64,000 bases of DNA from Bacillota bacterium (GCA_040755005.1 JBFMBV010000004.1:8013-72012), one strand, 5' to 3'. Numbered from the stretch's first letter, positions 6,942 to 46,904 are shown. Program-made: numbers and translations. Notes: a model not told the origin generated them from the sequence alone.

Positions 6942-9900
6942 TCAGAACAGGACCATCTGCTCGGTCTCTGGGAGGCCCTGCAGGCATCCCTCCGCGCGCA
7001 GCAGATCCACTACTGCGCGGTTCAGGCGGGCCCTATGGACGAGTTCTTCCACGCTGGCGAAGCCCCCCTGGTCCCTGGCCGAGGTGATGGCCTCAGCGGC
7101 GGCCGCGCCGAGCCCCGGGATGGCGACAAAGGGCGCCCGGATGCCCGAGGCTTCGGTCGTGAACTGCTGCGCCGCGCTGCGCTGAAGGTCCACCGGTAAG
7201 AAGCTGATGCCCCTGAGCCGCATCTCCGCAGCGAGCTCCAGCAGGGCCGCGAGGTTGCGCTCCCGTCCGGTGGCGGACGCGCCCTTGCGCTCTATTTCTG
7301 CGTGCATGTGCATTAATTCCTGCTCAGACGCCCGCATCAGCTCAGACGAAAACTCGGCGCCCCGTACCGTGAAGTGGGCGGCGTAAAACGCCGCGGGGTG
7401 ATGCACCTTGTACCAGGCGACCCGGAAGGACATCATCACGTATGCGGCGGCGTGGGCCTTGGGGAAGAGGTACTCGATGCGCCGGCAGGCTGCCCTGTAC
7501 CAATCGGGCACGCCGCAGGCGGCCATGGCGGCTTCGTCAGCCTGTCCCAGTTTCTTGCCTTTGCGGATTGTCTCCATGATCTGAAAGGCCTGCCTGGGGT
7601 CCAGGCCACGTCGGCGCAGGTGCAGCATGATGTCGTCACGGCAGCAGATCACTTCCGACAGGGTACGGCCGGCCCGGATCAGGGTCTGGGCGTTGTCCAG
7701 CCAGACGCCTGTCCCGTGGGATAGCCCGGCAATGCGGACAAGGTCGCTGAAGCTCGCAGGCAGTGTCTCCTCGAGCATCTGCCGGACAAAGCGCGTGCCG
7801 AACTCAGGAATCCCCACGGTGCCGAGCTTGCCCCCAGGCAACGGGGTCTTCGCACTCCCAGCAACGCTGAAGATGGCCATGGTGTCAGGGTCATCCATGG
7901 GCAGAGTGCGAGGATCCACGCCGGTGTAGTCCTGGAGCAGGCGCAGCATGGTGGGGTCGTCATGGCCAAGCAGGTCCAACTTGACCAGCTGGTCGCTGAG
8001 GCTGTCGTAGTCGAAGTGGGTGGTAACCAGGCCGGAACGCGTGTCGTTGGCGGGGTACTGGACGGGAGTGAACTCCTCGATGCGGCGGTCCTCGGGCAGG
8101 ATCACCAGGCCCCCCGGGTGCCTGCCTGTAGTCCGTTTCACCCCGCAGATGCCGAGGGCGAGCCTGGTCTCCTCGGCTCTGCGCACGGTCTTGCCCGTCC
8201 GCTCCAGATAGCCTTTGACGAACCCGAAGGCGGTTTTCTCCGCCACGGTCGCCACAGTGCCCGCCCTGAACACCCGCTCCGCGCCCAAGGACTCCTCCAG
8301 TCGCCGGTGGACCTCGGCCTGGCACGTACCGGAGAAGTTCAGGTCGATGTCGGGGACCTTCTTCCCATCCAGGCCCATGAACACCTCAAAGGGGATATCG
8401 TGGCCGTCCCTGCTCAAGGGTTTCCCACAGCCGGGGCAGTCCCGGGCCGGAAGGTCGAAGCCGGAGCCGCCCCAGCCAACGGCGAACTCCACGTGCCGGC
8501 ACGCGCCGCAGCGGTAGTGCGGCGTGAGGGGGTTGACCTCAGTGATGCCACACAGATAAGCCACCAGTGATGAGCCGACGGAACCCCGCGAACCCACCAG
8601 GTACCCCAGGGCTTCGGAACAGGTCACCGCCTGGGCCGCCAGGATGAAGATGGCCGCAAACCCGTTGGCGGTGATGCTGTCCAGTTCAGGGGCGAGCCTG
8701 GCCGCGACCTGCGGCGGCAGCGGGTCCCCATACAAGCCCGTGGCCCGTTCCGTGGCAAGGGACCTAAGCTTGAGTTCACTCCCCTCCAGTTGCGGCGGGT
8801 ACACCCCTTCGGGTACAGGCACCACGTGGTCGCACATGTCCGCGAGGCGCCGCGGTGCGATCACGGTGATCAGCCGGGCGGTATCCTCCCCGAGAAAAGC
8901 GAACTCCGCCAGCATCTCCCCGGTCGTGCGCAGGTACAGGCCCTTGCCCGCCTCACCGCCGGCTTCGGTATAGCCTTGGCCCGATTGGAGCACTTCCCTG
9001 TACACGGCATCATGCGGGTCGAGAAAGTGCACGTCCCCAGTGGCGACCACCGGCAAGCCCCGACGCTGGGCGATTCTGACCAGCCGGCGCAGGACTTCCA
9101 GCAGCCTGTCGGCGGTGACCGCCCCCGACTCCACCAGGGACCAGGCGTTGGCAGGCGGCTGTACCTCCACATAATCGTAGAAGTCGAGGCGTTCCCAAAT
9201 TTCGTCGTCAGAGGCGTTCTCCAGCAGGGCCTGGAGGATCTCCCCGCTTTGGCAGGCCGTACCCACTAACAGGCCTTCGCGGTGCTCGCTGACCATGGAC
9301 CTCGGGATCCGCGGCACCCTGCGGAAATGCTCCAGGTGAGAGGAGGAGACCAGCCGGTAGAGGTTGCGGAGGCCCGTCTGGTTGCGGGCCAGGAAGGTTA
9401 CATGGTGCCACCCTTGGGACTTCAGGCCGCTCTGAAGGGCATGCTCGTTGAGGGCCGCCAGGTCAGCCAACCCCAGGCGGCTGGCGGCTGCCAGCAGCCC
9501 GAGGAGGACTTCGGCGGTTGCGCGGCTGTCGTGGAGGGCCCGATGAGCGTGGGCGCGGGCGACGTCCAGGGCGGCAGCCACCGTCCCGAGCTTGTAGTCG
9601 TTGAGCCCCGGCACCAACAGCCTGGACAGGACCAGGGTGTCGACCACCGGCGCTCTGGCCCAGGGCCCCTGCGCCTCGGCGGCCAGGAGAAACGCCAGAT
9701 CGAACCCGGCGTTGTGGGCGGCGAGGCAGGCCCCTTCGCAGAACCGGGCCAGCCCCTGGATGGCTTCTTCCCTGGGGACGCCCTCCCGGGCGAGTTCCTC
9801 GGGGGTGATCCCCGTGAGTGCAACGATGCCGGCAGGGAGTTCACGGTCCGGACGCACCAAGGCGTGGAACTGGGCAGCGATCCGGCCGGCCTGCACGCGG

Positions 9901-11066
9901 ACAGCCCCCAGCTCGATGATCTCATCCGTTCCGGGTTTGAGGCCTGTGGTCTCAAGGTCGACGACTACATACGAGTGCTCCTCCAGGGGTCCCGCTGCCG
10001 GCCGGAGCACTGGACGGGAGGCTTCGCCGGTAAGGTACCCTTCCAGCCCAAAGATGACCTTGACCCCATGCCGTTTGCCCGCTGCATAGGCAGCGGGAAA
10101 GGCCTGCACCACCCCGTGGTCGGTCACGGCCAAGGCGGTATGGCCCCACGCTGCGGCCCTGGCCACGGCCTCATCTATGTCGGTGAGGGCGTCGAGGGCG
10201 CTGAAACGGGTGTGAAGGTGCAGTTCCACCCGGCCCTCGGGGGCAGGGTCAGCACGGACTGCTGGCTCGCGCCAGTTCACTGCCGCAGCGTGGATGTACT
10301 CCTCCCGCTCGCTTCTCGCGCTGTCCAGCAGCACAGCGCCTTCCACCCTCACGCGGTCCCCATCGGACAGCGCCGGAAAGCAGTCCCCCGGCTCGAGAAA
10401 ACACTTGACCCGGATGGAGTCCTGGCGGTCAGTGAGCACGAAGGAGACGAGCCGCTTGCCGCCCTGTAGGGCGCGTTCCGTCGAGGCCACGACCTCCCCC
10501 TCCACCACCGCCCGTTTGGCCTCGCGAACCTCGGCCACCGGGTGGGGGTCTGAGGGGATCGCGCGGCCCCATACTCTGCCGGGCACTACAGGCTGCAAGG
10601 GCGACTGCCCGTCCCCGACCTGCCTGCGCCGAAAACTGACCGGCACAGGTGCGCCGGCCGCCCCATGCACTGCCTCCTTCACAGCCGCCGCGATGCCGGC
10701 ATCCGCGAGGACACTGTCTAGGGAGCCGTCCACTTCCAGAACCAGCCCCCCCGCGTCCCAGGCCGGCGTGGCTGTGGTCAACAGACCGGCCGCCGCCGGA
10801 TGCGTGCGCTCCAGGGTGGACAGGGCTTCGTCCCACCCAACCGGTCCGGGTTCGGCCCGGGTACCTTGTACTTCCAGGTGCACCCCCTGGAGGCCAGGAA
10901 CGCATCGTCTCAAGGCGTCCGCAAACGCGGCCAGGCGGGCCGGGGTGTAACCCTGTCCCGCCAACGTGACCCGAAAGGTGCGTCTCCGGGTGCTGACGGT
11001 TATGTGGGCCCCACGCAAGGCATCAGTCAGTTCCGGGTCGACTCGCGCCAGCTCACGCAGATCCAC
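6942..11066 (-). CDS. polC: DNA polymerase III alpha subunit, PolC-type, with embedded 3'-5' exonuclease
   Basis: 1374-aa ORF with a PHP domain, exonuclease motif YVVVDLETTGL, polymerase core and OB fold. Typical Firmicute PolC length. Confidence 0.95.
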   Translation of the reverse strand: MDLRELARVDPELTDALRGAHITVSTRRRTFRVTLAGQGYTPARLAAFADALRRCVPGLQGVHLEVQGTRAEPGPVGWDEALSTLERTHPAAAGLLTTATPAWDAGGLVLEVDGSLDSVLADAGIAAAVKEAVHGAAGAPVPVSFRRRQVGDGQSPLQPVVPGRVWGRAIPSDPHPVAEVREAKRAVVEGEVVASTERALQGGKRLVSFVLTDRQDSIRVKCFLEPGDCFPALSDGDRVRVEGAVLLDSARSEREEYIHAAAVNWREPAVRADPAPEGRVELHLHTRFSALDALTDIDEAVARAAAWGHTALAVTDHGVVQAFPAAYAAGKRHGVKVIFGLEGYLTGEASRPVLRPAAGPLEEHSYVVVDLETTGLKPGTDEIIELGAVRVQAGRIAAQFHALVRPDRELPAGIVALTGITPEELAREGVPREEAIQGLARFCEGACLAAHNAGFDLAFLLAAEAQGPWARAPVVDTLVLSRLLVPGLNDYKLGTVAAALDVARAHAHRALHDSRATAEVLLGLLAAASRLGLADLAALNEHALQSGLKSQGWHHVTFLARNQTGLRNLYRLVSSSHLEHFRRVPRIPRSMVSEHREGLLVGTACQSGEILQALLENASDDEIWERLDFYDYVEVQPPANAWSLVESGAVTADRLLEVLRRLVRIAQRRGLPVVATGDVHFLDPHDAVYREVLQSGQGYTEAGGEAGKGLYLRTTGEMLAEFAFLGEDTARLITVIAPRRLADMCDHVVPVPEGVYPPQLEGSELKLRSLATERATGLYGDPLPPQVAARLAPELDSITANGFAAIFILAAQAVTCSEALGYLVGSRGSVGSSLVAYLCGITEVNPLTPHYRCGACRHVEFAVGWGGSGFDLPARDCPGCGKPLSRDGHDIPFEVFMGLDGKKVPDIDLNFSGTCQAEVHRRLEESLGAERVFRAGTVATVAEKTAFGFVKGYLERTGKTVRRAEETRLALGICGVKRTTGRHPGGLVILPEDRRIEEFTPVQYPANDTRSGLVTTHFDYDSLSDQLVKLDLLGHDDPTMLRLLQDYTGVDPRTLPMDDPDTMAIFSVAGSAKTPLPGGKLGTVGIPEFGTRFVRQMLEETLPASFSDLVRIAGLSHGTGVWLDNAQTLIRAGRTLSEVICCRDDIMLHLRRRGLDPRQAFQIMETIRKGKKLGQADEAAMAACGVPDWYRAACRRIEYLFPKAHAAAYVMMSFRVAWYKVHHPAAFYAAHFTVRGAEFSSELMRASEQELMHMHAEIERKGASATGRERNLAALLELAAEMRLRGISFLPVDLQRSAAQQFTTEASGIRAPFVAIPGLGAAAAEAITSARDQGGFASVEELVHRARLNRAVVDLLRAEGCLQGLPETEQMVLF

Positions 11067-26229: not shown

Positions 26230-26249
26230 GCCTGGCGCACCTCCCGCAT

Positions 26250-27140
26250 TCAGGCCCTGGGATGAGCCCTCCTGTATACGGCCCGCATGCGTTCCTGGGT
26301 CACATGGGCGTAGATCTGCGTGGTCGAGATGCTCACATGCCCGAGCAGTTCCTGCACGGATCTCAGGTCAGCCCCCGCATCCAGCAGATGGGTGGCGAAA
26401 GAGTGCCTGAGGGTGTGCGGGCTGACCTTCCTGGACCGCGCGGTCTGATCCAGGTACTTGTCGAGGATGCGCCGCACGCTCCTGTCCCGCAGCCGTGTGC
26501 CCCTGCTGTTGACGAACAGCGCCCGCTCGGGCCTCCCGGCCACCATGGAGGGCCGGGCCTCCCGCAAGTACCGGGCTAGGGCCCTGAGGGCGTAGCTCCC
26601 GACGGGCACCAGCCGCTCCTTCCGCCCCTTCCCGTAGGCGATGAGGAACCCCTCGTCGAGGGACACTGACCCTAAGTCCAGGCCTACCAGCTCGCCGACG
26701 CGGAGGCCGGCTGCATACAGCGTCTCCAGAAGGGCCGCGTCCCGCAGTCCGAGGGGGTGGCTGGGGTCGGGGGCGTCCAGCAGCGCTGCCACCTCTTCCA
26801 CATGGAGGAAGCCGGGCAAGCGGCGCCCCAGTTTGGGACCGGACACACTGGCCAGGGGATGCTCCGGCAGCCCGCCCTCCCGGCAGACAAACCGAAAGAA
26901 TGAGCGCAGGGTGGCCAGCTTCCGTGCCATGCTCCGCCGGGCGTAGCTTCGGGCTACCAGGTGGCCGAGGAAGCGGCGGGCAGTGAGGTGATCCACCCCG
27001 GCCAGATCCCTTCCGAGGCCTTCCCTGGCGCAAAAGCCAAAGAACTGCGACAGGTCACCGGCGTAGCTCCGCAGCGTGTGCTCGGAGGCGCCCTTTTCGA
27101 CCCTCAAGTAGTCTAGGAACGGCCCCAGCCAGTCTGACAC
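26250..27140 (-). CDS. xerC: tyrosine recombinase XerC (CodV-like)
   Basis: [23 protein letters not shown]... followed by the catalytic R..HxxR..Y block ([36 protein letters not shown]). The ORF-track start at 27446 overlaps topA by 170 nt. A GTG at 27138-27140 with GGAGG 6 nt upstream gives 296 aa. Confidence 0.85.
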
Positions 27141-27162
27141 AGCCAACCTCCGATCCAGACAC

Positions 27163-27191
27163 ATTGTACCACTGCCCGACTGCGGCTTCAA
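27163..27191 (-). promoter_or_regulatory. candidate sigma-A promoter for xerC-hslVU-codY
   Basis: Minus strand: TTGAAG (27186-27191), 17-nt spacer, extended -10 TGGTACAAT (-10 at 27163-27168). Lies in the 112-nt gap after topA. Confidence 0.4.
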
Positions 27192-27276
27192 TTCACAATT
27201 CTCAGAACATCGCGGCATCAGCGTCTCCGGGGGCGGCGTGAGCGCAGGCAAGCCCAGCTCCCGATGCCGACTGGGT

Positions 27277-29364
27277 TCAACCCGCCTCGGTCTCCATGCG
27301 GTGGCCGCACTCCTCCTTGGCGCAGACCAACACAGGACTCTGACCGCGGCGACGTTGTTCGAACATGACGGTTCCGCAGGCCGGGCACTCTCCGGCCGGC
27401 ACCTTCCACGACACGTAGTCGCACTCCGGGTATCGCACGCACCCATAGAACCTGCGTTTCTGTTTGGTCCGGCGCGCGGCCAGCTCCCCGCCGCAACGTG
27501 GGCAGCGTCCCGGGACGGTCTCGATCAGGGGTTTGGTGCTGCGGCACTCAGGGAAGCCTGGGCAGGCCAGGAACTTCCCGTAGCGTCCCCATTTCACCAC
27601 CATGTTCTGGCCGCACTTCTCACAGAGCACATCGCTGACTTCCTCGGCCACGGTGAGGGGACCGATGGCTTCCTCCGCCTTGGTCAGGGTGGCAACGAAC
27701 GGCGGGTAGAACTCACCCAGCACGTCGTGCCACCCCCGCGAACCTTCTTCGACCTCGTCCAGCCTGCGTTCCAGTTCTGCCGTGAACTCCACGTCCACTA
27801 CGTCCGCGAAATGCTCCGTGAGCAGGTCCGTCACCAGCGTGCCCAGCTCGGTGGGGACCAGGCGCCGCTGGGACTTGGAGGCATACCCGCGGGTGACGAT
27901 GGTGTCGATGGTCGGAGCGTATGTACTCGGACGTCCGATGCCCTGCTCTTCCAGGGCCCTGACCAGGGTCGCCTCGGTGTACCGGGGCGGGGCTTGGGTG
28001 AAGTGCTGCTTCGGCATGAGTTCTGCCAGGCGCACGGGCTCCCCCGGCACGAGCTCCGGCAGGTTGCCTTCGTCCTTGTCGGCGTCGGGTTCATCCTCAC
28101 CCACGGTGTACAGGGCAGTGAACCCAGCGAAACGTAACGTGGACCCGGAGGCCCGGAACAGGTGGCGGCCTGCGGCGATCTCCGCCGTGACCACATCGAA
28201 CAGGGCAGCCGCCATTTCGCTGGCCACGAAGCGCTCCCAGATGAGCCTGTACAGGCGGTACTGCTCTGAACTCAAGTACGGCTTCAGCGTTTCAGGTTCC
28301 CGCGACACTGCCGTGGGACGGATGGCCTCATGGGCCTCCTGAGCGCCCTTGGCCTTCACCGCCTCCCGGGGGCGCGCCGGCACGAACTTGGCCCCGAACC
28401 GGCCCTTGATGTACTTGCGCACCTCTTCCCTGGCTGGCGCCGCGATGCGGGTGGAGTCGGTGCGCATGTACGTGATGAGGCCGACAGCGCCGCCACCACC
28501 TACCTCAAGGCCTTCGTACAGCTGCTGGGCAATGGCCATGGTCCGTCGGACCGGGAACCCCAGCTTCCGAAAGGCTTCCTGCTGCATGGTCGAGGTGATG
28601 AACGCCGGTTCGGCTAAGCGGCGCCGCTCCTTAGACTTAACACTGACGACACTGAACGCGGCCCGCGCGATGGCGGCCTGCACTCTGTCCACGTCGGCGC
28701 CGGTCTTCAGCTCGACCTTGCGTCCAGCCTCGCCCCAATACTTGGCCGTGAACACCACCTCGTCGGAGCACCTGGCCAGCCGGGCTGTGAGCGACCAGTA
28801 CTCCTCAGGCACAAAGGCGTGGATCTGCCGTTCCCTGTCCACGATCAGCTTGAGGGCTACCGACTGCACCCGCCCGGCGCTCAAGCCCGGCCGCACCTTG
28901 CGCCACAGCAAGGGGCTCAGTTTGTACCCCACCACGCGGTCCAGGACCCTGCGGGCCTGCTGGGCGTCGACCAGGTTCATGTTGATGGGGCGGGGATGCT
29001 TCAGGGCCCCCTCGACCGCCTCTTTGGTGATCTCATGGAACTCGATGCGTACGGCGTTGGCGGGCAGGTTCAGGATGTCAGCCAGGTGCCAGGAGATCGC
29101 CTCTCCTTCCCGGTCAGGGTCTGTCGCCAGATACACCTTGCCCGCCTTCTTGGCGCTGTCCCTGAGCTGCTTGACGATGTCCCCTTTGCCCCTGATCGTG
29201 ATGTATTTCGGGGTGAATCCGTGCTCCACGTCGACCCCGAACTGGCTGCGGGGCAAGTCCCGGATATGGCCCATCGAAGCCTTGACCTGGCAACGCCGTC
29301 CCAGCAGGCGTTCCAGGGTCCTGGCCTTGGCGGGGGATTCCACGATGATCAGCGGTTTCGGCAC
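27277..29364 (-). CDS. topA: DNA topoisomerase I
   Basis: 695-aa ORF with the N-terminus [22 protein letters not shown], a Toprim domain, the catalytic core and C-terminal Zn-ribbon repeats (CPxCG). Confidence 0.95.
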
Positions 29365-34264: not shown

Positions 34265-35617
34265 CTACGCCAGCTCGATGTTGGCTTCGGGGACCATCAC
34301 CCGTTGGCCGTCCTCGAGTTCTAGTTCCACAGCCTTGAGCCTCGCCTCAGTCTCCATGGCCATAGGCTCAGTGGGCAAGCCGGTGACGGTGCCCCACAGG
34401 CCGAAGTACGGCTTGCGCACGACCCTCACCCGCATGCCGACCGCCAGCTGATGCTCGGCCTCCGGGGCCAGGGGGCCGGACTCGGACCCGTCGGCGCGCG
34501 GGATGATGAGCTCGGGCCTGACTACCCCTGCCCGCACCTGGGTCGCCCCGTTGATGGACACCACCGCTCCGTCATGTCTTTGCAGCAGGGCAAAAGTGGG
34601 GGCGGCCATCGGCATGGAACCGAAGCCTTCTGTGATCAACAGGGTCAGGTCCAGGTCCTCCTGGCCCGTGACGGCGACGCCGATGGGCTGACCGATGAGG
34701 TCGCTCAGGTCGGCCACGTCGGCCCCACCCGCGACCACCCCGACAGCTCCCACAGCCAGCGCCTTGCGGAGTGCAGCCAGCGGGACATGGCTGCCGCCAA
34801 CCAGCACCTTGCCGGCGTGGGCCTCGGTGACCATGCCGTCGGTGAGGGGCTCGCCTGGACCGCGGGCGACGACCGAAAGCAGGCCGTGGTGTTCGCCACC
34901 CAGGCCGAAGATGCCCTGGACGTACGCCCCCTTCGTCTCGATCACCGCACCGCGTTCAGGGATGAGGTCGGTGACTGTGCCGCCGATGTACGCATCAAGC
35001 ATCGTGGGACGGGCGGGGCGCACAACGGTCACCGTCCCTGACCGGGAACACACCTTCTCCACCAGGCCGCTGATGGGACTGTAGACATACTCCAGCGTCC
35101 CCAGGGCTGAGGGCATGGCGGCGACGACCCCGCCCTGCCTCACTTCGGCGCCCTCCCGGACCGTGAGGTACATCCTCAGGCTCCCTGGCCATACCTGGAG
35201 CTGCTTGGCTACGGGGATGATGGCCATGGGCAGGGCGGACCGGGGATCCTCGCGGATGAGCACGCGTCCGTATGCGCGGGAGATGAACTCGACTGTGCCG
35301 CTCACCGGGGACTTGACCACCAGCACGTCGGCGAAGGCCCCCTTGACCATGCGGGCGATGACCTCATGGGTCGTGACCCGGTCACCGACTCGCTTGAGCG
35401 CGGCCCGATCCACTTCCTCCGGCGTCAGGCGCTTGTGGAAACCGGCGTTCAGGTCGATCACATACGGCTCGCCCGGCAGCACTTCACTCTTGGCCACCAG
35501 GGTATCGGGGGAGACCTCCTGGCCTCGCTTGACCAGCACTTCGCCAGGCAGGGGCAGATATCGCTCCCGCCTGATCAGGACTCGTTCGCGGACTTCCGCC
35601 TCATGCCTCCTGACCAT
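34265..35617 (-). CDS. hypothetical 450-aa protein with repeated lipoyl/biotinyl-like (barrel-sandwich-hybrid) motifs, translationally coupled to the GlmL-like ATPase
   Basis: Start ATG overlaps the stop of the upstream gene (ATGA at 35617). Motifs LPGEVLVKRGQEVSPDTLVAKSE, VKSPVSGTVEFIS and YSPISGLVEKV resemble hybrid-barrel halves. No TM segment or signal peptide. I cannot name a family. Confidence 0.55.
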   Translation of the reverse strand: MVRRHEAEVRERVLIRRERYLPLPGEVLVKRGQEVSPDTLVAKSEVLPGEPYVIDLNAGFHKRLTPEEVDRAALKRVGDRVTTHEVIARMVKGAFADVLVVKSPVSGTVEFISRAYGRVLIREDPRSALPMAIIPVAKQLQVWPGSLRMYLTVREGAEVRQGGVVAAMPSALGTLEYVYSPISGLVEKVCSRSGTVTVVRPARPTMLDAYIGGTVTDLIPERGAVIETKGAYVQGIFGLGGEHHGLLSVVARGPGEPLTDGMVTEAHAGKVLVGGSHVPLAALRKALAVGAVGVVAGGADVADLSDLIGQPIGVAVTGQEDLDLTLLITEGFGSMPMAAPTFALLQRHDGAVVSINGATQVRAGVVRPELIIPRADGSESGPLAPEAEHQLAVGMRVRVVRKPYFGLWGTVTGLPTEPMAMETEARLKAVELELEDGQRVMVPEANIELA

Positions 35618-37434
35618 CAGGCCTCACCTCCCTTGCCGGAGACTGCCTCGGCCGGATAGGCCTCTAGGGCGGCCAACCAGCTTCTCACCTGCTGCAGCCT
35701 GCCCTCGCCCCTGCCCAGCGGCTTCAAGGGCCTGCCGCGGCCGTCGAGGACCAGCCCGATCTCGCCCCCCCTGGCCTTGCCCAGGCGGCGCCGACCTTTC
35801 CCCTCACCAGCGTCATAGCCCCGCCCCGGCAGGATCTCCACGCCGACTTCCTCTCCAGCCGGGCACGGGATGACTCTCAGGATGCCCGCCTCCACGGTTT
35901 CGCTGACGACCCTGCCCGAAGCGAAGGTCAGGAGGACCTTGGCAATGGCGCCGCGCTCCGCGGCCGGTCCGGCAGGGCAGATGCAGGTGCCCAGCGGCAC
36001 CAGGCAATCACCCTCAAAGGCCTCCAAGGCCGCGTCAGGGTCAGCTTCGGCTAGGGCACCCAGTTGAGGCAACATGAACACACTGTCCACGTACAGCTCG
36101 GTGATGCCCTCGGGTTCGATGGAGTCGATCAGGATTAGCGCCGCCTGGGACCGCCGCGGCGCATGGGACAGCACGCCGCCGGAGCCGATGATGATACCGA
36201 CCTCGTTCATGACTATCAGGCTCTGGCCAGTGGTCTCCTGGGCCAGGCCCGCGTCCAAGCTGCGCTTCTGCTTGACGCCTTTCAGCCCCGCCACCACTGA
36301 GCGGTGGTGGGCGATGGACAGCCGTAGTGCCTCGCGCGCCATGGCATGCTCCAACATGAGTTCTTCCAGGGTCTGCGGGAGCGTGGTGGGCCGGATCATC
36401 TTATTGCCTGTCCAGTTCTGCAGCTCCCAGACGGTGGTCTCAAAGGGAAGCCACTGGAGGACCCGTTCCGGCTTGGCTTCCACCATCACGTTGGCCATGC
36501 TGTATGACATGCCCAGGTTGGCGCTAACAGTACGGTTGAAGGTCCCGTCCATCACTGAGAACACATCGGTGGTGGCACCGCCGATGTCGACTCCCAGGAC
36601 ATTGCGGCCGCGCCTCTGGGACAACAGCTTCATCATGGACCCGACCGCAGTCGGGGTAGGCATGACCGTGTTCCTGCTCCAGTCGAGCAGCTCCCGGTAT
36701 CCGGGGGCGTGGGCCATGACGTGCTCGAGGAACAGCTTGTGGATCTCGGCCCGCGCCGGTTCCAGGTCCTCTCGCTCCAGGGTGGGGCGGATGTTGTCCA
36801 CCATCCGTACGTCCATGGTCTCGCTGAGGATGTCGCTCACGTAGTCGCGGGCGTTCACGTTGCCAGCATAGATGACCGGCACCTTGAAGCCTGTCCCGAA
36901 CCGCGGCTGCGGGTGGGCAGCCTGGACGTACTCGGCCACTGCCAGCACATGCGAGGTGTTGCCGTGATCGGTCCCACCCGCCAGCAGGATCATGTCAGGC
37001 CGGAACTCCTTGAGTCTGCGGATGCGCTCCACGACCAACCGGGCATCATCGATGCTGATGACGTCCATGACGATGGCCCCCGCCCCCAGCGCTGCCCGGT
37101 TGGCGCTCTCAGCGGTCATGGTCTTGATCACCCCCGCCACCGCCATCTGCAGCCCGCCGCCGGCGCTCGACGTGGCCACAAACAGGTCAACGCCGGCGCC
37201 GTCCCGGTCAGTGGTGAGCAACCGGTCGTTGTCGAGCAACCTCAGCCCAGTGGTTGCCTCGACTTGGCGCACAGCGTTGCGGACTCCGACCATCACGTCT
37301 TCTGACGGTGCCTCGACCGTGGTCGGGGCCTGCCCGCGGGCGATCAGACCGAACTTCCCGTCCTTCACCCCGAGCAGGATCGCCTTAGAAGTCGTGCTGC
37401 CGACATCAATGGCCAGAACAGTGCGGGGCCGCAT
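35617..37434 (-). CDS. GlmL/MutL-family (glutamate-mutase-L / EutA-like) ASKHA-fold ATPase with a C-terminal Gly/Arg-rich extension
   Basis: 605-aa ORF. N-terminus MRPRTVLAIDVGSTTSKAILLG...TTVEAPSEDVMVGVRNA has the L.IDFGST.TK...TTVE..D...G pattern of GlmL-family proteins, and a second nucleotide-binding loop (GVDIGGATTDVFSV) is present. About 140 extra C-terminal residues have no match. SD GGGGG before the ATG. Confidence 0.65.
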   Translation of the reverse strand: MRPRTVLAIDVGSTTSKAILLGVKDGKFGLIARGQAPTTVEAPSEDVMVGVRNAVRQVEATTGLRLLDNDRLLTTDRDGAGVDLFVATSSAGGGLQMAVAGVIKTMTAESANRAALGAGAIVMDVISIDDARLVVERIRRLKEFRPDMILLAGGTDHGNTSHVLAVAEYVQAAHPQPRFGTGFKVPVIYAGNVNARDYVSDILSETMDVRMVDNIRPTLEREDLEPARAEIHKLFLEHVMAHAPGYRELLDWSRNTVMPTPTAVGSMMKLLSQRRGRNVLGVDIGGATTDVFSVMDGTFNRTVSANLGMSYSMANVMVEAKPERVLQWLPFETTVWELQNWTGNKMIRPTTLPQTLEELMLEHAMAREALRLSIAHHRSVVAGLKGVKQKRSLDAGLAQETTGQSLIVMNEVGIIIGSGGVLSHAPRRSQAALILIDSIEPEGITELYVDSVFMLPQLGALAEADPDAALEAFEGDCLVPLGTCICPAGPAAERGAIAKVLLTFASGRVVSETVEAGILRVIPCPAGEEVGVEILPGRGYDAGEGKGRRRLGKARGGEIGLVLDGRGRPLKPLGRGEGRLQQVRSWLAALEAYPAEAVSGKGGEA

Positions 37435-37509
37435 GCCCTACCCCCTTGTAGTCCCTCGCTTACTGCTAATACGCGGTTCGGCCCTGTTTGTTCCCCAGCA
37501 CCCTCGCGC

Positions 37510-38706
37510 TCAGCTATCGCCGGCCAGCTTGCGGACGGCTGCAGTCAGCGCGGGTATCACTTCGAACAGGTCGCCGACGATGCCGTAGGTGGCAGCCTTG
37601 AAGATGGGCGCGTCCGGATTCTTGTTGATGGCGACGATGATGTCTGAGGACTGCATCCCAGCCAGGTGCTGCACCGCCCCGGAAATGCCACAGGCGATGT
37701 ACACCTTCGGACCCACCGTCTTGCCGGTCTGGCCCACCTGATGTGAATAGGGTATCCAACCTGCGTCCACCGCCGCCCTTGACGCCCCGACAGCGCCCCG
37801 CAGGGCCCTCGCCAGCTCACCGATGAGGGCGAAGTGCTTCGGGTCGGCTAGCCCGCGGCCCCCCGACACGATCACGTCGGCCTCCTCGAGCTTCACCGAG
37901 TCCCCGCCCTCTTCGACTGCCTGCATCAGGCGGGTACGGGCAGGCCTGATGGCCTCGCCGCAGTCCACGGCCTCGATGTCCCCCCGGCGCCCTGAGTCGG
38001 CGGGAGCCCGCTTCATCACCCTCGGCCGCACCGTGGCCATCTGCGGCCGCATACGCGGGCACAGGATGGTTGCCATGATGTTGCCCCCGAACGCCGGGCG
38101 CGTCTGGCGGAGCAGGCCGGTATCGACCTCCACGTCCAGTCCGGTGCAATCGGCGGTCAGGCCGGTCCCCAGGCGCACGGCCAGCCGCGGGGCAAGGGAC
38201 CGTCCCACCGATGTGGCCCCGAACAAGAGGATGTTGGGCTTGCGCGCCCGCACCAGATGGAACAGGGCGTCCGTATAAGGTTCATCGAGGAAGTGGGCCA
38301 GGGCAGGGTGCTCGGCTACCAACACCCTGTCGGCCCCATGCTGGACCAAGTCCTGCGGGCCGTCCCCTAGGCCGTGGCCGGCCACGACTGCGACAAGTTC
38401 CTGGCCCAGCTTGTCCGCCAGAACCCGGCCGGCCCCCAAAAGCTCATAGCTGACTCCGGCCACACGGCCGTCCCTCTGTTCAGCGTAAACCCACACCCCG
38501 TTGGCCTCCTGGGCGGCCTCGGCGCGCTTCTCCACCGTAAGCTCGATGGCCTCCAGCGGGCAGCCGTCAACGCAGGCCCCACATAGGGTACAGGTGGGTC
38601 CGATGGTGCACTTGCCCTCGACCATGCTCAGGGCGCCGTAGGGGCAGGCGCTGAGGCAAGCCTCACAGCCTTCACACTTAGCTAAGACGATCCTGATGCC
38701 TTCCAT
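37510..38706 (-). CDS. etfA: electron transfer flavoprotein alpha subunit with an N-terminal 2x[4Fe-4S] ferredoxin domain
   Basis: 398-aa ORF. N-terminus carries [12 protein letters not shown] and [12 protein letters not shown] (two CxxCxxCxxxCP motifs), followed by the EtfA core ([17 protein letters not shown]...[12 protein letters not shown]). Confidence 0.9.
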
Positions 38707-38723
38707 CCGCTTCTCGCCCCCCT

Positions 38724-39509
38724 TTAGACCGCCCCGGCGCGGCGGAGCCGCTCCAGCAGCCCCTCAGCTTGTTCCAGGGCACTGCCTGCCAGCAGTTCAC
38801 AGTCGCCTCTAAGTTCTGGGGTGAACACCCGTACGACCTCGGTGGCCGACCCCTTCAGCCCCACCCGCTCCGGGTCCACCCCGAGCTCGGTGGCCCCCCA
38901 CACCGTCACCGGCGCAGTGCGCGAACGCATCAGCCCTCTGAGGGTCGGGAGGCGGGGCTCGTTGATCTCCTTCACCACGGTGATCAGTGCCGGCAGGGGC
39001 AGCTCCAGTACGTCGTACCCGTACTCGGTCATGCGGTGCACCTGGATGCTGCCTTCGCCCACCTCGGCAACGCGTTTGACATAGGAAGCGTGGGGGATGT
39101 CCAGGAGCTCCGCAATGCCTGGGCCCACCTGGGCCGTATCTCCGTCGATGGCTTGCTTCCCGCAGATGATTAGGTCCGCCCCGCCCAACTTACTTACAGC
39201 TGCGGCCAGTGCGTACGAAGTGGCGAGGGTGTCTGCGCCAGCGAAGGCCCGGTCGCTAAGGAGCACCGCTTCATTGCAGCCCATGGCTAGCGCTTCCCGG
39301 AGCGCCGACTCCACTTGCGGCGGTCCCATGCTCAGGACGGTCACCGTCCCGCCGAGGCGCCCGGTGAGGCGGATACCTTCCTCCAGGGCGTACATGTCGA
39401 AGGGGTTGATGATGCTGGGGACCCCTTCGCGGATGAGCGTGTTCGTGTCTTTGTCCAACTTGACATCGGTGGTGTCCGGGACTTGCTTGATGCACACGAC
39501 GATCCTCAT
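38724..39509 (-). CDS. etfB: electron transfer flavoprotein beta subunit
   Basis: MRIVVCIKQVPDTTDVKLD... is the EtfB N-terminus. The ORF-track start is a TTG at 39515. The ATG at 39507-39509 is preceded by SD GGAGGAGG, which lies in the 18-nt gap after the SBP stop. Confidence 0.9.
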   Translation of the reverse strand: MRIVVCIKQVPDTTDVKLDKDTNTLIREGVPSIINPFDMYALEEGIRLTGRLGGTVTVLSMGPPQVESALREALAMGCNEAVLLSDRAFAGADTLATSYALAAAVSKLGGADLIICGKQAIDGDTAQVGPGIAELLDIPHASYVKRVAEVGEGSIQVHRMTEYGYDVLELPLPALITVVKEINEPRLPTLRGLMRSRTAPVTVWGATELGVDPERVGLKGSATEVVRVFTPELRGDCELLAGSALEQAEGLLERLRRAGAV

Positions 39510-39533
39510 TGGCAACGGTCGCCTCCTCCACTA

Positions 39534-41105
39534 TCAGAAACGGTGTGCGTCGTGCAGGTACAACCGCCCACCCGTACCGACGCCCACGCCTTTTACGGCT
39601 TGGTGGAACACCGCCCGTTCCACCAGCGTGAACAGGGGCAGCCAAGGTACGTCCATGGCCAGCAGTCGCTGGACTTCGGCGGCCACAGCCCGCCTGTCCG
39701 CCGGTGCAGCCGCCACAGTGGACACCTCCAGTAGGAGGTCAAGCCTGGCGTCGACATAGCCCGTGCGGTTCATCCGGCCCACCCTGGACGAGTGGAAGAA
39801 GTAGAACAGCACATCGGGCCCATCCCAGGCGTAATTCAGCAGTGCCGCATCGTAGACGCCATCTGCGGTGGCGCTCAGCACCTGATCCAGGGGGCGCACC
39901 CGCACGTCTACCTTGACCCCTACCTGGGCCAGCTGGCGGGCCACTTCAGCCGCGGCCCGCTCGCTCTCGGGCAGTGCTGGCACGAGCAGGGTCAGCGCGA
40001 GGGGCACGTTGTCCCGTTGCCTGACGCCTGTACCCCCGCCCCTGACGAACCCCGCCGCCTCCAACGCAGCCTCTGCCTTGGTGGATCCGGGCAGCGGCAA
40101 GGCGCCGACGGCCTCCTTGGCATGCCCGTATACTCCGGGCGGCAGGCTGGAGCGGCTGGGGGCCAGCCGCGGGTTGCCTCCCGCCGCGGCCACTGCTACG
40201 GGGTCGATGGCCTGGGCCAGCGCCCTGCGCAGGTCCACGTTGTCCCAAGGGGCACGGCGGACGTTGAAGGCCAGGTAGAAAAGGGTAGGTTCGAAGTACT
40301 CGAACACCCGGTGGTTGCGGCTGTCCCCTGCTGCTGCGCCGGAGGCGACCGCGTCGATCCTGCCGTTGGCGAGGGCTTCCCTGAGTTCGTCCCCGCCGGG
40401 GAACGGCTCGAAGCTGACCTGGTCAAGGTAAGCGCGGCCACGGTTGCGGTAGAAGGCGGGGGGCCACGCGTACTCAGCGTTGACGGCCAGTTCAACCCTG
40501 CCCGCGGGGGACGTGCTCACGACCCGGTAGGGGCCGGTCCCCGTGGGAGCCTTCCAAAAATCGTCACCGAGCTGCTTGGCTTGGGTTGGGGACACGATGG
40601 CGCCTGCGGGCGAGGCCAGGGCTTCCCAGATGGGCGGGTAGGGGCGCTCGAAGGTCAGGGTGACTGTCAGCCGGTCCACGGCCACTACTTCCTTGAGGGT
40701 GCCGAACCTGGCCGCGAGTCCGGAACCGCCCGCGACCGTCCGATCCAGGCTGAACTTGACCGCCTCGGCGTCACACGGGGTCCCGTCATGGAACTTCACC
40801 CCGTCACGCAACACGAACGTCAGCCTACGCCCGTCGTCCTGCAGCGACCATGATGTCGCCAGCGCGGGGACGTACTCCCCGGCAGGATCTAAGGTGACCA
40901 GGTTGTCGAACACCAACTGCCTGGGCCAGTCGAGCCCTTCAGCCAGGAGTGGGTCCAGCCTCACCGCCGGACCGATGTACCCGATGGCCAGCGCCCCGCC
41001 GGGCTTCGGCAGGGCCAGTCGACGGCAACCCCCGCCAGCGGCCGCGCCGAGGGTGGCCAGCAGGCAGACGATGATGGCGGCTCGTACTGGCCGCGAGTGT
41101 AACAA
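39534..41105 (-). CDS. ABC transporter substrate-binding lipoprotein, family 5 (DppA/OppA/NikA-like), orphan
   Basis: 523-aa ORF with lipoprotein signal LLATLGAAAGGGC and family-5 motifs (LTFVLRDGVKFHDGTPCDAEAVKFSLDR, GTGPYRVV). No permease or ATPase genes are adjacent. Confidence 0.85.
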   Translation of the reverse strand: MLHSRPVRAAIIVCLLATLGAAAGGGCRRLALPKPGGALAIGYIGPAVRLDPLLAEGLDWPRQLVFDNLVTLDPAGEYVPALATSWSLQDDGRRLTFVLRDGVKFHDGTPCDAEAVKFSLDRTVAGGSGLAARFGTLKEVVAVDRLTVTLTFERPYPPIWEALASPAGAIVSPTQAKQLGDDFWKAPTGTGPYRVVSTSPAGRVELAVNAEYAWPPAFYRNRGRAYLDQVSFEPFPGGDELREALANGRIDAVASGAAAGDSRNHRVFEYFEPTLFYLAFNVRRAPWDNVDLRRALAQAIDPVAVAAAGGNPRLAPSRSSLPPGVYGHAKEAVGALPLPGSTKAEAALEAAGFVRGGGTGVRQRDNVPLALTLLVPALPESERAAAEVARQLAQVGVKVDVRVRPLDQVLSATADGVYDAALLNYAWDGPDVLFYFFHSSRVGRMNRTGYVDARLDLLLEVSTVAAAPADRRAVAAEVQRLLAMDVPWLPLFTLVERAVFHQAVKGVGVGTGGRLYLHDAHRF

Positions 41106-44149: not shown

Positions 44150-45259
44150 GTGAAATTGTGCGTTCGTCTGATGTGCCTGCTGCTTCTGGTCAGCCTAGTG
44201 GCCTCGATCGGGGGCTGCAAGCCGGACCCGAAGACCCTGAAGGTCGGACTTGTCACCGGCACTGTCTCACAGGGTGAGGACGAGTACAGACAGGCAGAGC
44301 GGCTCAAGGCCAAGTTCGCCGACAGGCTGATCCACGTAACTTATCCGGACAACTTCATGGCAGAGCAGGAGACTACGATCACCCGCATCACGGGCCTCGC
44401 CGCTGATAAGGCTGTCAAAGTTATCGTCATCTGTCAGGGTGTGCCCGGCACCCTTGCGGCCATCGACAAGATTCGTCAGACCCGCAAGGACATCACGTTC
44501 ATCGTCGGCGTACCCCATGAGGATCCCAAGATGGTCGCCTCCAAGGTCGACTACGCCTTCAGCACGGACGATGTGACACGGGGCAAGAGCATCGTCCAGC
44601 TGGCCAAGCAGCTCGGCGCCAAGAAGTTCCTCCACTACTCCTTCCCGCGCCACATGGGCATGGAGTTCCTGGCTAACCGCCGCAACAACATGGAAGCTGA
44701 GTGCAAGGCCCTCGGGCTCGAGTTCATCTTCGTGACCGCCCCCGACCCGATGGGCCCGGACGGCCTCCCCGGCACCCAGAAGTTCATCCTGGAAGATGTG
44801 CCCCGGCAGGTCGCCCAGCATGGCAAAGACATCGCTGTCTTCGGCACCAACTGCGGCATGCAGGAGCCGCTGATCCGCGCCTGCCTAGATGCTGGCGCGA
44901 TCTTCCCGGAGCAGTGCTGCCCGAGCCCAACCCACGGTTACCCCAGCGCCCTGGCGATCGATGTCAAGGGCATGGCGGGTAACATCAAGGCCATCCTGGC
45001 CGCCATCGACGCCAAAATCGTCGAAGAAGGCGGCGCTGGCCGCTTCGCGACCTGGGCTGTCCCCATCAACATGCTGCTCATCGAGGCCGGCACGGAGTTG
45101 GCCTACGACATCATCGCTACCGGCAAAAAGCCGACCGAGGCCGACATCAAGGCGAAGCTGCAGGCCCTGTCAGGCCTGTCGCCCCAGATGCGCAAGTACT
45201 CACCCGAGTCCAACTTCTATCTCCTGATCGTCGGCTCCCACATCTTCGGCAAGAAGTAG
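44150..45259 (+). CDS. ABC transporter substrate-binding lipoprotein (periplasmic-binding-protein type I fold; sugar/nucleoside-type system)
   Basis: 369-aa ORF with GTG start 7 nt after GAGGAGGGG. Lipoprotein signal LLLVSLVASIGGC. KVGLVTGTVSQGEDEY... resembles PBP type I sugar/BMP-like binding proteins; it might be a DUF3798-type lipoprotein, but this is uncertain. First gene of an SBP-ATPase-permease-permease operon. Confidence 0.75.
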   Translation: MKLCVRLMCLLLLVSLVASIGGCKPDPKTLKVGLVTGTVSQGEDEYRQAERLKAKFADRLIHVTYPDNFMAEQETTITRITGLAADKAVKVIVICQGVPGTLAAIDKIRQTRKDITFIVGVPHEDPKMVASKVDYAFSTDDVTRGKSIVQLAKQLGAKKFLHYSFPRHMGMEFLANRRNNMEAECKALGLEFIFVTAPDPMGPDGLPGTQKFILEDVPRQVAQHGKDIAVFGTNCGMQEPLIRACLDAGAIFPEQCCPSPTHGYPSALAIDVKGMAGNIKAILAAIDAKIVEEGGAGRFATWAVPINMLLIEAGTELAYDIIATGKKPTEADIKAKLQALSGLSPQMRKYSPESNFYLLIVGSHIFGKK

Positions 45260-45329
45260 CCGCCTGAAAAGGGGCCGTCCGTGCGGGCGGCCCCTTTCCC
45301 ACGTGATAAGGATGTGATGAGACCTGTCT

Positions 45330-46904
45330 GTGCTCACCATGCGCGGCATCACCAAGGAGTTCGGCGGCGTGTCGGCCCTGAAGAACGTCGACTTGACGGT
45401 GGAGGCAGGCCAGATCCATGCCCTGTTGGGCGAGAACGGCGCGGGCAAGACCACCCTGCTGAACATCCTCTTCGGGATGCCGGTCATCCGCGCCACCGGC
45501 GGTTATCGGGGCACGATCAGCATACACGGGGTGCCCTTCTCCCCCAAAGACCCCTCCGAGGCCCTGGCCGCCGGGATCGGCATGGTCCACCAGGAGTTCA
45601 TGCTCATCCCCGGCTTCACCGTCGCCGAGAACGTCAAGCTGAACCGCGAACCCTTGCGCCACGCTTCCCTGGGCCGCGTGCATCCTTCGCTGCACATCCT
45701 TGACCGGCCCGCCATGGCTGCCGACACCCGCCAGGCCTTCACTTCCATCGGGGTCAACGTGGACGACTGGATGATGGTGGCAGGGCTGCCTGTCGGCCAC
45801 AAGCAGTTCGTGGAGATCGCCCGGGAGGTGGACAAGCACGGCACCAAGCTGCTCATCCTCGACGAACCCACGGCCGTGCTCACTGAAGTCGAGGCGGCCC
45901 AACTCATCGAAGCCCTTCGGCGCCTGGCGGCCAGGGGCTTGGGCATCCTCTTCATCACCCACCGCCTGGATGAAGTCTTGGCATGCGCGTCGCAGATCAG
46001 CGTGCTCCGGGACGGGGAACTGGTCGCCTGCCTGCCGGCCGCTGAAGCCTCCTTGCGTCAGCTGGCGGAAGTGATGGTGGGAAGGCCGGTGGAACGTCAG
46101 CCCATGCCCCCTAGGGGAACCGTCACCGGTGCTTCGTTGCGGTTCGAGGGGTTCAGCGTGGAGATGCCGGGAGAGCGCGTCACGGGACTGGACCTTGAGG
46201 TGCAGGCTGGGGAGATCCTGGGCATCGGCGGGCTGGCTGGCCACGGTAAGCTCGGAATCGCCAACGGCGTGATGGGGCTCTACCCAGCGAGGGGCCAAGT
46301 CAGCTTCGACGGTGAGCCCTTCCGCCTCGGCCAGCCCATCGAGGCGCTGTCCCGCCGCATCGCCTTCCTCTCGGAAGACCGCCGCGGCGTGGGGCTGCTC
46401 CTCGATGCCCCCATCGACTATAACCTCGCCTTTACATCCATGAATATCGAAGGCAGGTTCCTCAAGCGGCCGCTAGGTGTGCCCTGGCTGACCTGGCGCG
46501 ACAGCCGGGGCATGCGCACCCACGCGGAAGCCCTCATCTCCCAGCTGGACATCCGCTGCACCGGACCGGATCAGGCCGTCCGCCGCCTCAGCGGGGGGAA
46601 CCAGCAGAAGGTCTGCATCGGCCGGGCCATCACCCGGCAACCGAGGCTGCTCTTCGCCTCGGAACCCACCCGTGGCATCGATGTAGGCGCCAAGTCCCTC
46701 ATTCTGGACCTCCTGGCCAGGCTCAACCGCGAGGCCGGGGTCACCATCGTGATAACCTCAAGCGAGTTGGCTGAGCTTAGGCGCATCTGCGACCGCATCG
46801 CCATCATCTACCGTGGGCGCTTAGCCCGTGTGCTTCCCCCTGATGCCAGCGACGCCGACTTCGGTCTGGCCATGGCCGGGCGACCGCCGGGAGGTGACCT
46901 ATGA
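45330..46904 (+). CDS. ABC transporter ATP-binding protein with two fused NBDs (RbsA/MglA/XylG-like, CUT2-type)
   Basis: 524-aa ORF. First NBD has Walker A GENGAGKTT and a second NBD follows (LSGGNQQKVCIGRA..., Walker B LLFASEPTRGIDVGA). The start may instead be the Met at about 45339. Confidence 0.9.
   Translation: MLTMRGITKEFGGVSALKNVDLTVEAGQIHALLGENGAGKTTLLNILFGMPVIRATGGYRGTISIHGVPFSPKDPSEALAAGIGMVHQEFMLIPGFTVAENVKLNREPLRHASLGRVHPSLHILDRPAMAADTRQAFTSIGVNVDDWMMVAGLPVGHKQFVEIAREVDKHGTKLLILDEPTAVLTEVEAAQLIEALRRLAARGLGILFITHRLDEVLACASQISVLRDGELVACLPAAEASLRQLAEVMVGRPVERQPMPPRGTVTGASLRFEGFSVEMPGERVTGLDLEVQAGEILGIGGLAGHGKLGIANGVMGLYPARGQVSFDGEPFRLGQPIEALSRRIAFLSEDRRGVGLLLDAPIDYNLAFTSMNIEGRFLKRPLGVPWLTWRDSRGMRTHAEALISQLDIRCTGPDQAVRRLSGGNQQKVCIGRAITRQPRLLFASEPTRGIDVGAKSLILDLLARLNREAGVTIVITSSELAELRRICDRIAIIYRGRLARVLPPDASDADFGLAMAGRPPGGDL

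Follow-up and report, generated by a model that had tools for sequence, protein, structure and literature searches.

A GlmL-family ATPase and its BSH-swivel-KOW partner form a conserved two-protein module that is independent of neighboring electron-transfer flavoprotein genes

Introduction

GlmL, of the GlmL/MutL family of ASKHA ATPases (PF13941; NF040745, TIGR01319), has been described as a chaperone for the reactivation of glutamate mutase (PMC4682846). In electron-transfer flavoproteins (Etf), the ferredoxin (Fd) domain of CarE- and LctC-type alpha subunits relays electrons to or from ferredoxin (PMC9232219). Proteins of both kinds are encoded side by side in a 64,000-nucleotide stretch of DNA from a Bacillota bacterium (GCA_040755005.1, JBFMBV010000004.1:8013-72012), which we call the window. 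There, etfB and an Fd-fused etfA are followed by genes for a 605-aa ATPase and a 450-aa protein. A preliminary description of this DNA, made from the sequence alone, had read the four genes as one transcription unit encoding an ATP-dependent activase or chaperone pair wired to a low-potential electron-delivery module. Here, we show that the 605-aa and 450-aa proteins constitute an autonomous, ancient two-protein module, independent of Etf and of B12-dependent mutases.

The ATPase resembles GlmL/MutL and the GlmL-related ornithine degradation protein (NF040744) in that its residues 6-475 align with them from end to end and keep the ASKHA fold and all nucleotide-binding motifs. It differs from GlmL/MutL in scoring below every curated NCBIfam cut-off, in carrying an extra conserved C-terminal domain of ~130 aa, in never standing beside glmS/glmE-type genes in the loci examined, and in being coupled to a protein with barrel-sandwich-hybrid (BSH), swiveling and KOW domains and often to a membrane-protein block that includes DUF6754. 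Compared with the diol/glycerol dehydratase reactivase DdrAB (PduGH), DdrA is outside the top 60 structural neighbors of the ATPase, and neither a DdrB-like subunit nor dehydratase genes accompany it. Its top structural neighbors are FtsA and PilM, known as actin-fold ATPases that dock onto bitopic membrane proteins, but the ATPase has no FtsA or PilM Pfam match and the membrane proteins of its gene cluster are unrelated to PilN/O or FtsN. The 450-aa partner shares only a BSH domain with NqrA and RnfC, the peripheral subunits of Na+-NQR and Rnf; it lacks flavin, NADH or Fe-S motifs, and its swivel and KOW architecture is different. Lastly, the window EtfA resembles CarE (PMC9232219) in its N-terminal ferredoxin domain, in which both [4Fe-4S] motifs are complete, whereas the genes differ from CarDE of CarCDE and LctBC of Ldh-EtfAB in that no CarC/acyl-CoA dehydrogenase or Ldh gene was found adjacent or among the scanned window open reading frames (ORFs), and in that the window Etf falls below the NCBIfam equivalog cut-offs.

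Results and Discussion

The pair across bacteria and archaea

We scanned one genome per GTDB species for the partner protein, which returned at least 580 carriers, and took 80 loci (1.13 Mb) carrying this member of the pair. The six-frame ORFs of these loci were searched with the four window proteins, and recurrent neighbors were found by clustering all neighboring ORFs. The loci come from Bacillota, Chloroflexota, Eisenbacteria, Zixibacteria, WOR-3, Cloacimonadota, Marinimicrobia, Poribacteria, Armatimonadota, Nitrospira, Brocadia, Bathyarchaeia, and Korarchaeota. In 50 of the 80 loci, the next gene upstream of the partner gene was that for the ATPase, which we refer to as long GlmL; in another 8, it stood elsewhere in the locus. 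The junction between the two genes ranged from a 29-nt overlap to a 16-nt gap across relatives, and in the window the ATPase gene likewise leads directly into the partner gene, through a stop/start overlap that reads TGATG instead of the ATGA first reported. In one natural 995-aa ORF (L095:2029-5016), long GlmL and the BSH-swivel-KOW protein are even fused, each of them complete; the genes around it are in the canonical arrangement, with a small ORF before the fusion and DUF6754 and two ORFs of 232 and 221 aa after it. EtfA and EtfB were absent within 10 kb from all 80 loci (0/80), and no mutase family was among the recurrent neighbors.

These results bear out the earlier observation of a GlmL-family ATPase that has no B12-mutase partner and is coupled to an uncharacterized protein. 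The pair is undescribed in the literature searched: queries on the long GlmL clade, on PF13941/TIGR01319 and on DUF6754/PF20539 returned no report on the clade or its pair. Neither the pair nor its six cluster partners matched the PADLOC anti-phage defense models.

The partner family comprises 1,185 representatives at 50% identity (E ≤ 1e-30), and the 616 or more homologues fall into two size classes, ~450 and ~375 aa. Bacillota carry both pair types in tandem. Complete genomes with the pair include those of the cultivable Symbiobacterium thermophilum and of Ca. Fermentithermobacillus (CP062796). Such paralogous pairs were seen in several Bacillota, including a Symbiobacterium thermophilum metagenome-assembled genome (MAG) (L009-L016 and L062; e.g. 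L016:4423-17290), with a partner of ~450-480 aa in one pair, one of ~373 aa in the other, and a ~130-aa gene between them. In Symbiobacterium and several Clostridia-like MAGs, the order is membrane block, ATPase, ~470-aa partner, ~130-aa gene, second ATPase, and ~373-aa partner, followed downstream by a DUF483-like gene, UDG, and tsaE-tsaB-rimI-tsaD. No second ATPase-partner pair was found in the window.

The long GlmL ATPase

The ATPase matched PF13941 with 408.1 bits against a gathering score of 27, and its residues 6-475 covered profile positions 1-448 of 450, so its core does follow the GlmL/MutL pattern that had been proposed for it. A EutA pattern, proposed at the same time, was not recovered: PF13941 alone passed threshold, with no EutA, BadF/BcrA, or threshold-level hydantoinase Pfam match. 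Homologues number in the thousands, are ~600 aa long, and share 51-63% identity with the window protein over 94-100% (mostly 98%) of its length; identity across phyla is ~55%. The ASKHA phosphate-1, phosphate-2 and adenosine motifs are invariant across the family. Sequence and profile searches against the PDB gave no match for the ATPase.

Since homologues mostly align over 98% of the protein, the "extension" at its C terminus belongs to the family as a whole. The preliminary description had reported it as ~140 aa, Gly/Arg-rich, and impossible to match to anything. It is indeed present, and no Pfam family covers it, but it is ~130 aa long, is not of low complexity, and is confidently predicted to form a beta domain, which is conserved in the family, with the motifs DCL..LGT, P.RG.D.G.G.G and GG.iGlvlDgRGRP. 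In the AlphaFold2 (AF2) model, it consists of seven strands and two helices, with a predicted local distance difference test score (pLDDT) mostly of 85-95.

Transmembrane (TM) prediction classed both the ATPase and its partner as soluble. Neither protein has conserved cysteine clusters (C477 alone reaches 90%) and the partner has no conserved histidine; therefore, Fe-S or phospho-histidine chemistry is not indicated. Activators of the HgdC/BcrAD type are recognized by conserved [4Fe-4S]-ligating cysteines and a BcrAD_BadFG signature, and the pair has neither.

The BSH-swivel-KOW partner

The 450-aa protein, first described as of unknown family, has only faint Pfam matches, all to barrel-sandwich hybrids: RnfC_N, NqrA_N, DUF2118, and M23, the last two in residues ~124-200. 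Its AF2 model (pLDDT 86.7) predicts one or two BSH domains like those of RnfC, NqrA, and BCCP, followed by a swiveling domain with structural matches to RraA (8.9), the mobile domains of PEP-utilizing enzymes (8.7-8.9), the small subunit of aconitase X (7.8), and DdrA (7.2). The C-terminal KOW/SH3-like barrel has structural matches to NusG, Spt5, eL27, and PsaE. The most conserved residues of the family lie in the swiveling domain, in the motifs GxFGxGxE, TGxE, EGFG, and NGxTQxRAGxxRP. Two roles were considered for these domains and dropped. A lipoyl or biotinyl carrier function of the BSH domains is unlikely, as the hairpin expected to bear the modified lysine is replaced in the alignment by an insertion of ~40 residues that has no conserved lysine. 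A phospho-histidine swivel domain was rejected on the absence of a conserved histidine noted above.

No ATPase gene stands within 10 kb of the ~375-aa partner gene in loci from Poribacteria, several Armatimonadota, and WOR-3 (L025, L027, L030, L032, L041, L044, L058, L059, L066-L068, and L076); there, the partner gene often adjoins a gene for a D-2-hydroxyacid dehydrogenase or an OmpR-type response regulator.

The DUF6754 membrane block

Besides the ATPase and the partner, the set of genes that recurs in both bacteria and archaea comprises a ~175-aa TM-hairpin protein, a ~130-aa soluble protein, and a block of four genes. The first gene of the block encodes DUF6754 (PF20539, 332 bits). The other three encode, by TM prediction, a polytopic protein of ~210 aa, one of ~280 aa with TM helices at both its N and C termini, and a second polytopic protein, of ~240 aa. 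Two or more block genes were within 10 kb in 30 of the 80 loci, and all four in 25. The order of genes within the block is rigid, and the block as a whole may be upstream, downstream, or divergent, in bacteria as in archaea. In the clade of the window, two MAGs encode DUF6754 elsewhere, and one of them has the whole block on another contig (L090). Apart from DUF6754 and a weak DUF483 match, the cluster partners had no Pfam, NCBIfam, or PADLOC relatives; the four membrane-block families gave only noise against the PDB (E > 0.3), and no papers mentioning the cluster partners were found in the literature searched.

Other neighbors recur less often. About nine loci labeled as several phyla (L018, L029, L035, L037, L043, L049, L053, L083, and L019) have all or part of a glycine-cleavage operon (gcvT-gcvH-gcvPA-gcvPB) immediately upstream of the cluster, in the same orientation; in L035, the membrane block is followed by a lipoate-protein ligase-like gene. 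A gene for a NAGPA-domain protein (phosphodiester glycosidase) with a Big_1 domain was found near or just downstream of the partner gene (L003:11121-12857, where L003-L005 are the same region assembled from three samples, and L006:10006-11766, from an Armatimonadota MAG), and polysaccharide deacetylase genes lie close by in L003. The NAGPA and deacetylase genes hint at a possible cell-envelope neighborhood. We regard the glycine-cleavage operons and the cell-envelope genes as leads on the process involved, not as answers.

A proposed role for the pair, and how it compares with the alternatives

The explanation that we favor, with a probability of roughly 55%, is that the pair is a stand-alone, anciently conserved module that provides the cytoplasmic, ATP-hydrolyzing part of a membrane-associated system, and that it is neither driven by Etf nor a reactivase of B12 mutases. 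Conservation of the pair, its independence from Etf and B12 mutases, its domain architecture, and the intact nucleotide motifs are all direct observations. Because translation is coupled, one natural fusion exists, and the block is adjacent in many loci, we infer with moderate confidence that the two proteins form a complex and are coupled to the membrane block, and we place similar confidence in an ATP-driven action. Long GlmL and the BSH-swivel-KOW protein would be made by coupled translation and would act as a complex, which would belong to a larger cluster with the four membrane proteins, the ~175-aa TM hairpin, and the ~130-aa soluble protein. The pair may dock onto the membrane proteins much as FtsA and PilM dock onto their bitopic membrane partners. 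In the lineage of the window, the pair would have separated from the membrane block and now reside in the interval between comM and dprA, where Etf genes, ABC exporters, or rpmB appear to come and go as neighbors. That long GlmL, the BSH-swivel-KOW protein, the DUF6754 block and the two small proteins together make up an undescribed ancient membrane-associated, ATP-driven machine, present in many phyla and in Bathyarchaeia and Korarchaeota, is a more tentative proposal, to which we give slightly less than even odds.

Several observations weigh against the favored explanation. The partner gene has no ATPase gene nearby in 22 of the 80 loci, although six of these are too short upstream to judge. 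The window's partner belongs to the ~450-aa class, which is paralogous to the more common ~375-aa class and may have diverged from it in function. The 995-aa fusion is on a single 7.6-kb metagenome contig, and its stop codon may have been lost by sequencing error. Just 30 of the 80 loci, or 14 of the 30 well-flanked ones, have the block within 10 kb, and profile searches of the six-frame ORFs of the window found none of its four families or of the two small-protein families at E ≤ 1; the link is therefore indirect for this genome. Etf genes recur next to the pair in three of seven close relatives as well as in the window, so that a lineage-specific functional recruitment is possible. No experiments on any member of the family were found in the literature searched.

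The strongest alternative, which we still consider unlikely, takes the pair to be a soluble chaperone or modifying enzyme that acts on a cytoplasmic client in an ATP-dependent way, with adjacency to the block reflecting shared regulation or inheritance only. This would agree with the predicted solubility of both proteins, with the lack of the block in most loci and in the window, and with the separation of pair and block in the window's clade. The swiveling domain, with its invariant E242, T317, E320, E330, N356, T359, R362, and R367, resembles a catalytic or binding site, and the glycine-cleavage operons upstream in about nine loci also speak for this alternative. However, the adjacency to the block occurs in bacteria as well as archaea and in varying arrangements, a pattern that usually signals functional coupling; DUF6754 directly follows the fused protein; and the candidate soluble clients each recur in ~10% of the 80 loci at most.

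A canonical GlmL/MutL chaperone, reactivating a glutamate, lysine or ornithine B12 mutase encoded elsewhere with the 450-aa protein as an accessory, is improbable. The strong PF13941 match, the known activity of GlmL, and the name "glutamate mutase L" assigned by the NCBI annotation pipeline (PGAP) all speak for such a protein, and its best NCBIfam matches are GlmL and the GlmL-related ornithine degradation protein. Nevertheless, it reached 245.8 bits against NF040745 (methylaspartate mutase accessory protein GlmL, an equivalog model with a cut-off of 475), 228.7 bits against NF040744 (cut-off 600), and 188.1 bits against TIGR01319 (GlmL family; cut-off 204.05). As it scores under all three cut-offs for GlmL-type proteins, it is a PF13941 member and not a GlmL equivalog. 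It also has the conserved C-terminal domain that ~460-aa GlmL lacks, and neither the window scan nor 16 Pfam-annotated related loci yielded a mutase gene (glmS/glmE, kamDE, or oraSE). Instead of mutases, the family has membrane-protein neighbors across very many phyla.

Electron-transfer flavoprotein genes in close relatives

The third alternative is the coupling to Etf put forward in the preliminary description, in which the pair takes low-potential electrons from Fd-EtfAB, the four genes form one operon, and the activase is akin to the ATP- and ferredoxin-driven activators of radical enzymes. We compared the window with seven relatives of its own clade, whose partner proteins are 46-55% identical to that of the window and which share the synteny comM - SBP_5 - ATPase - partner - dprA - topA, SBP_5 being a family-5 solute-binding protein gene. 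Etf genes lie between SBP_5 and the ATPase gene in three of the seven (L087, L089, and L091), and this recurrence, the tight co-directional spacing with no terminator predicted in the 75-nt gap, and the two-cluster ferredoxin domain of the window EtfA, with the relay role it has in CarE- and LctC-type proteins (PMC9232219), can be cited for the coupling. On the other hand, SBP_5 directly precedes the ATPase gene in the other four relatives (L088, L092, L093, and L094). Even where Etf is present, the Etf pair follows its own acyl-CoA dehydrogenase gene in L087, a transporter gene of the energy-coupling factor (ECF) type separates etfA from the ATPase gene in L089, and none of the three EtfA proteins (334-353 aa) has a ferredoxin domain. 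The Etf proteins of these relatives are just 35-58% identical to those of the window, vs. 53-62% for the ATPase.

The slot between SBP_5 and the ATPase gene is variable, and it follows that the EtfAB adjacency is not conserved in relatives, an outcome that had been named beforehand as refuting the coupling. Together with the 0/80 count and the lack of conserved Fe-S ligands or a BcrAD/BadFG match in the pair, this largely refutes the Etf-coupled activase, which we rate the least probable of the alternatives, very close to dismissal. The position of the pair beside Etf genes is probably a local accident of this lineage, and etfB and etfA are neighbors outside the ATPase-partner module.

The Etf genes themselves are as first described. 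Pfam recovered the ETF, ETF_alpha, and Fer4 domains, and EtfA residues 11-49 hold two complete CxxCxxCxxxCP motifs (C11/14/17/21 and C39/42/45/49), giving the Fd-fused architecture of the CarDE/LctBC type. The EtfB score against the NCBIfam EtfB model was 312 bits, under the cut-off of 445, and the EtfA product is named "electron transfer flavoprotein subunit alpha" at NCBI. No cognate dehydrogenase (acyl-CoA dehydrogenase or FAD-Ldh) was present among the Pfam-scanned window ORFs. The best reading of Fd-EtfAB from its sequence is an electron-transfer unit of its own, CarE-like in architectural type (PMC9232219), whose dehydrogenase partner would be outside the window.

The window and the six relatives with a fully recovered upstream region (L087-L089 and L092-L094) all have an orphan family-5 solute-binding protein gene (39534-41105 in the window), with no adjacent permease or ATPase genes, ahead of the ATPase gene or of the Etf genes inserted there; identity among these binding proteins is just 31-34%. 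A 407-aa flavoprotein encoded upstream in L089 was at one point taken to be FixC-like, an identity dropped when NCBIfam placed it in the geranylgeranyl reductase family.

Organization of the window

The four ORFs run head to tail on the minus strand (34265-39515), as the preliminary description had them, and their coding status is backed by a GC content at third codon positions (GC3) of 0.81-0.84. Coordinates are given in Table 1. The exact proteins are present in an NCBI "Bacillota bacterium" MAG (MEW6307762-4, locus tags AB1492_). The gaps given earlier are also correct: 18 nt from SBP_5 to etfB, 17 nt from etfB to etfA, and 75 nt from etfA to the ATPase gene.

Table 1. Features of the etfBA and ATPase-partner region, in window coordinates
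Feature	Coordinates	Strand	Remarks
Long GlmL/MutL ASKHA ATPase gene, 605 aa	35617..37434	minus	PF13941; NCBI MEW6307763.1, named "glutamate mutase L"
ASKHA nucleotide-binding core, residues 6-475	36010..37419	minus	Colinear with full-length GlmL
Conserved C-terminal domain, residues 476-605	35620..36009	minus	Not in canonical ~460-aa GlmL
Stop/start overlap TGATG joining ATPase and partner genes	35615..35619	minus	Sequence read; 1-nt overlap
Spacer from etfA to ATPase gene, 75 nt	37435..37509	minus	Own Shine-Dalgarno AAGGGGGT
Partner gene, 450 aa	34265..35617	minus	NCBI MEW6307762.1, AB1492_01780, "hypothetical protein"
BSH domain 1, residues ~9-123	35249..35593	minus	Predicted
Second BSH-like insertion, residues ~124-200	35018..35248	minus	~450-aa class only; gap in all aligned ~375-aa members
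Swiveling beta/beta/alpha-like domain, residues ~203-375	34493..35011	minus	Most conserved part
C-terminal KOW/SH3-like beta-barrel, residues ~393-450	34268..34441	minus	Predicted
etfB	38724..39515	minus	263 aa from TTG 39515 or 261 aa from ATG 39509; PF01012 160 bits
etfA, Fd-fused, 398 aa	37510..38706	minus	ETF, ETF_alpha, Fer4 matches
Ferredoxin domain of etfA, residues 1-62	38521..38706	minus	Two CxxCxxCxxxCP motifs

Whether the four genes are a single transcription unit is a different matter. They are co-directional with short gaps, as claimed, but the minus strand carries nearly every gene of the window, and the gap between SBP_5 and etfB is as tight as those among the four, so that neither shared direction nor short spacing marks them as a unit. 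The promoter and terminator scan of the intergenic gaps gave nothing useful, and in the 75-nt spacer it found no consensus promoter or terminator, a result compatible with co-transcription as well as with separate transcripts. This spacer is likely the boundary between two functional units.

The Pfam scan covered 34 window ORFs and left out about twenty, including a 1375-aa ORF at 6942..11066. The 34 form a Bacillota housekeeping array from rnc, smc, and ffh through to proS. On the upstream side are rnc, smc, ftsY, ffh, trmD, lepB, a GTPase gene, rnhB, and comM; the interval of interest holds genes for a peptidoglycan-binding protein and SBP_5, then etfBA, the ATPase-partner pair, and two ABC exporters; and on the downstream side are dprA, topA, xerC, hslVU, codY, rpsB, frr, cdsA, dxr, rseP, ispG, and proS. 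Among these 34 ORFs, there was no B12 mutase, acyl-CoA dehydrogenase, or other Etf partner, in agreement with the earlier statement that the window has no B12-mutase partner.

Three further details of the window were noted. The sole sizeable plus-strand block (44150-49014) encodes a DUF3798 lipoprotein-like binding protein, a double ABC ATPase, and two permeases of BPD_transp_2 type, the Pfam scan covering the first of these two permease genes. The hslV frame (25693-26262, minus) continues upstream of its listed GTG start through the catalytic N-terminus (...LQGTTIVGV...), and this extension has no ATG, GTG, or TTG start codon, which suggests an unusual start codon or a possible sequence error. 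At 26250-27277, xerC directly follows topA, and the trmFO (gid) gene that separates the two in the related loci L088, L089, and L092 is missing.

Conclusions

The puzzle of a GlmL without a mutase is genuine, and the electron-delivery link is not supported. What remains is a GlmL-family variant, widespread and uncharacterized, that has a defined partner and, likely, a membrane context. Most of the ATPase homologues for which a source name was given are labeled "glutamate mutase L," as is the window protein, and this label may lead readers to infer glutamate fermentation or B12 chemistry. The evidence says that the ~600-aa clade differs from canonical GlmL in having what appears to be its own obligatory partner and a frequent link to a four-protein membrane block for which Pfam gives no function. 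For work on electron bifurcation, the Fd-EtfAB proteins should not be assumed to serve the neighboring ATPase. Assigning a function to the module would annotate thousands of genes and would show a second use of the GlmL fold. If the proposed membrane machine is real, this fold, so far linked only to the reactivation of B12 mutases, would also be used as a membrane-docked motor or regulator.

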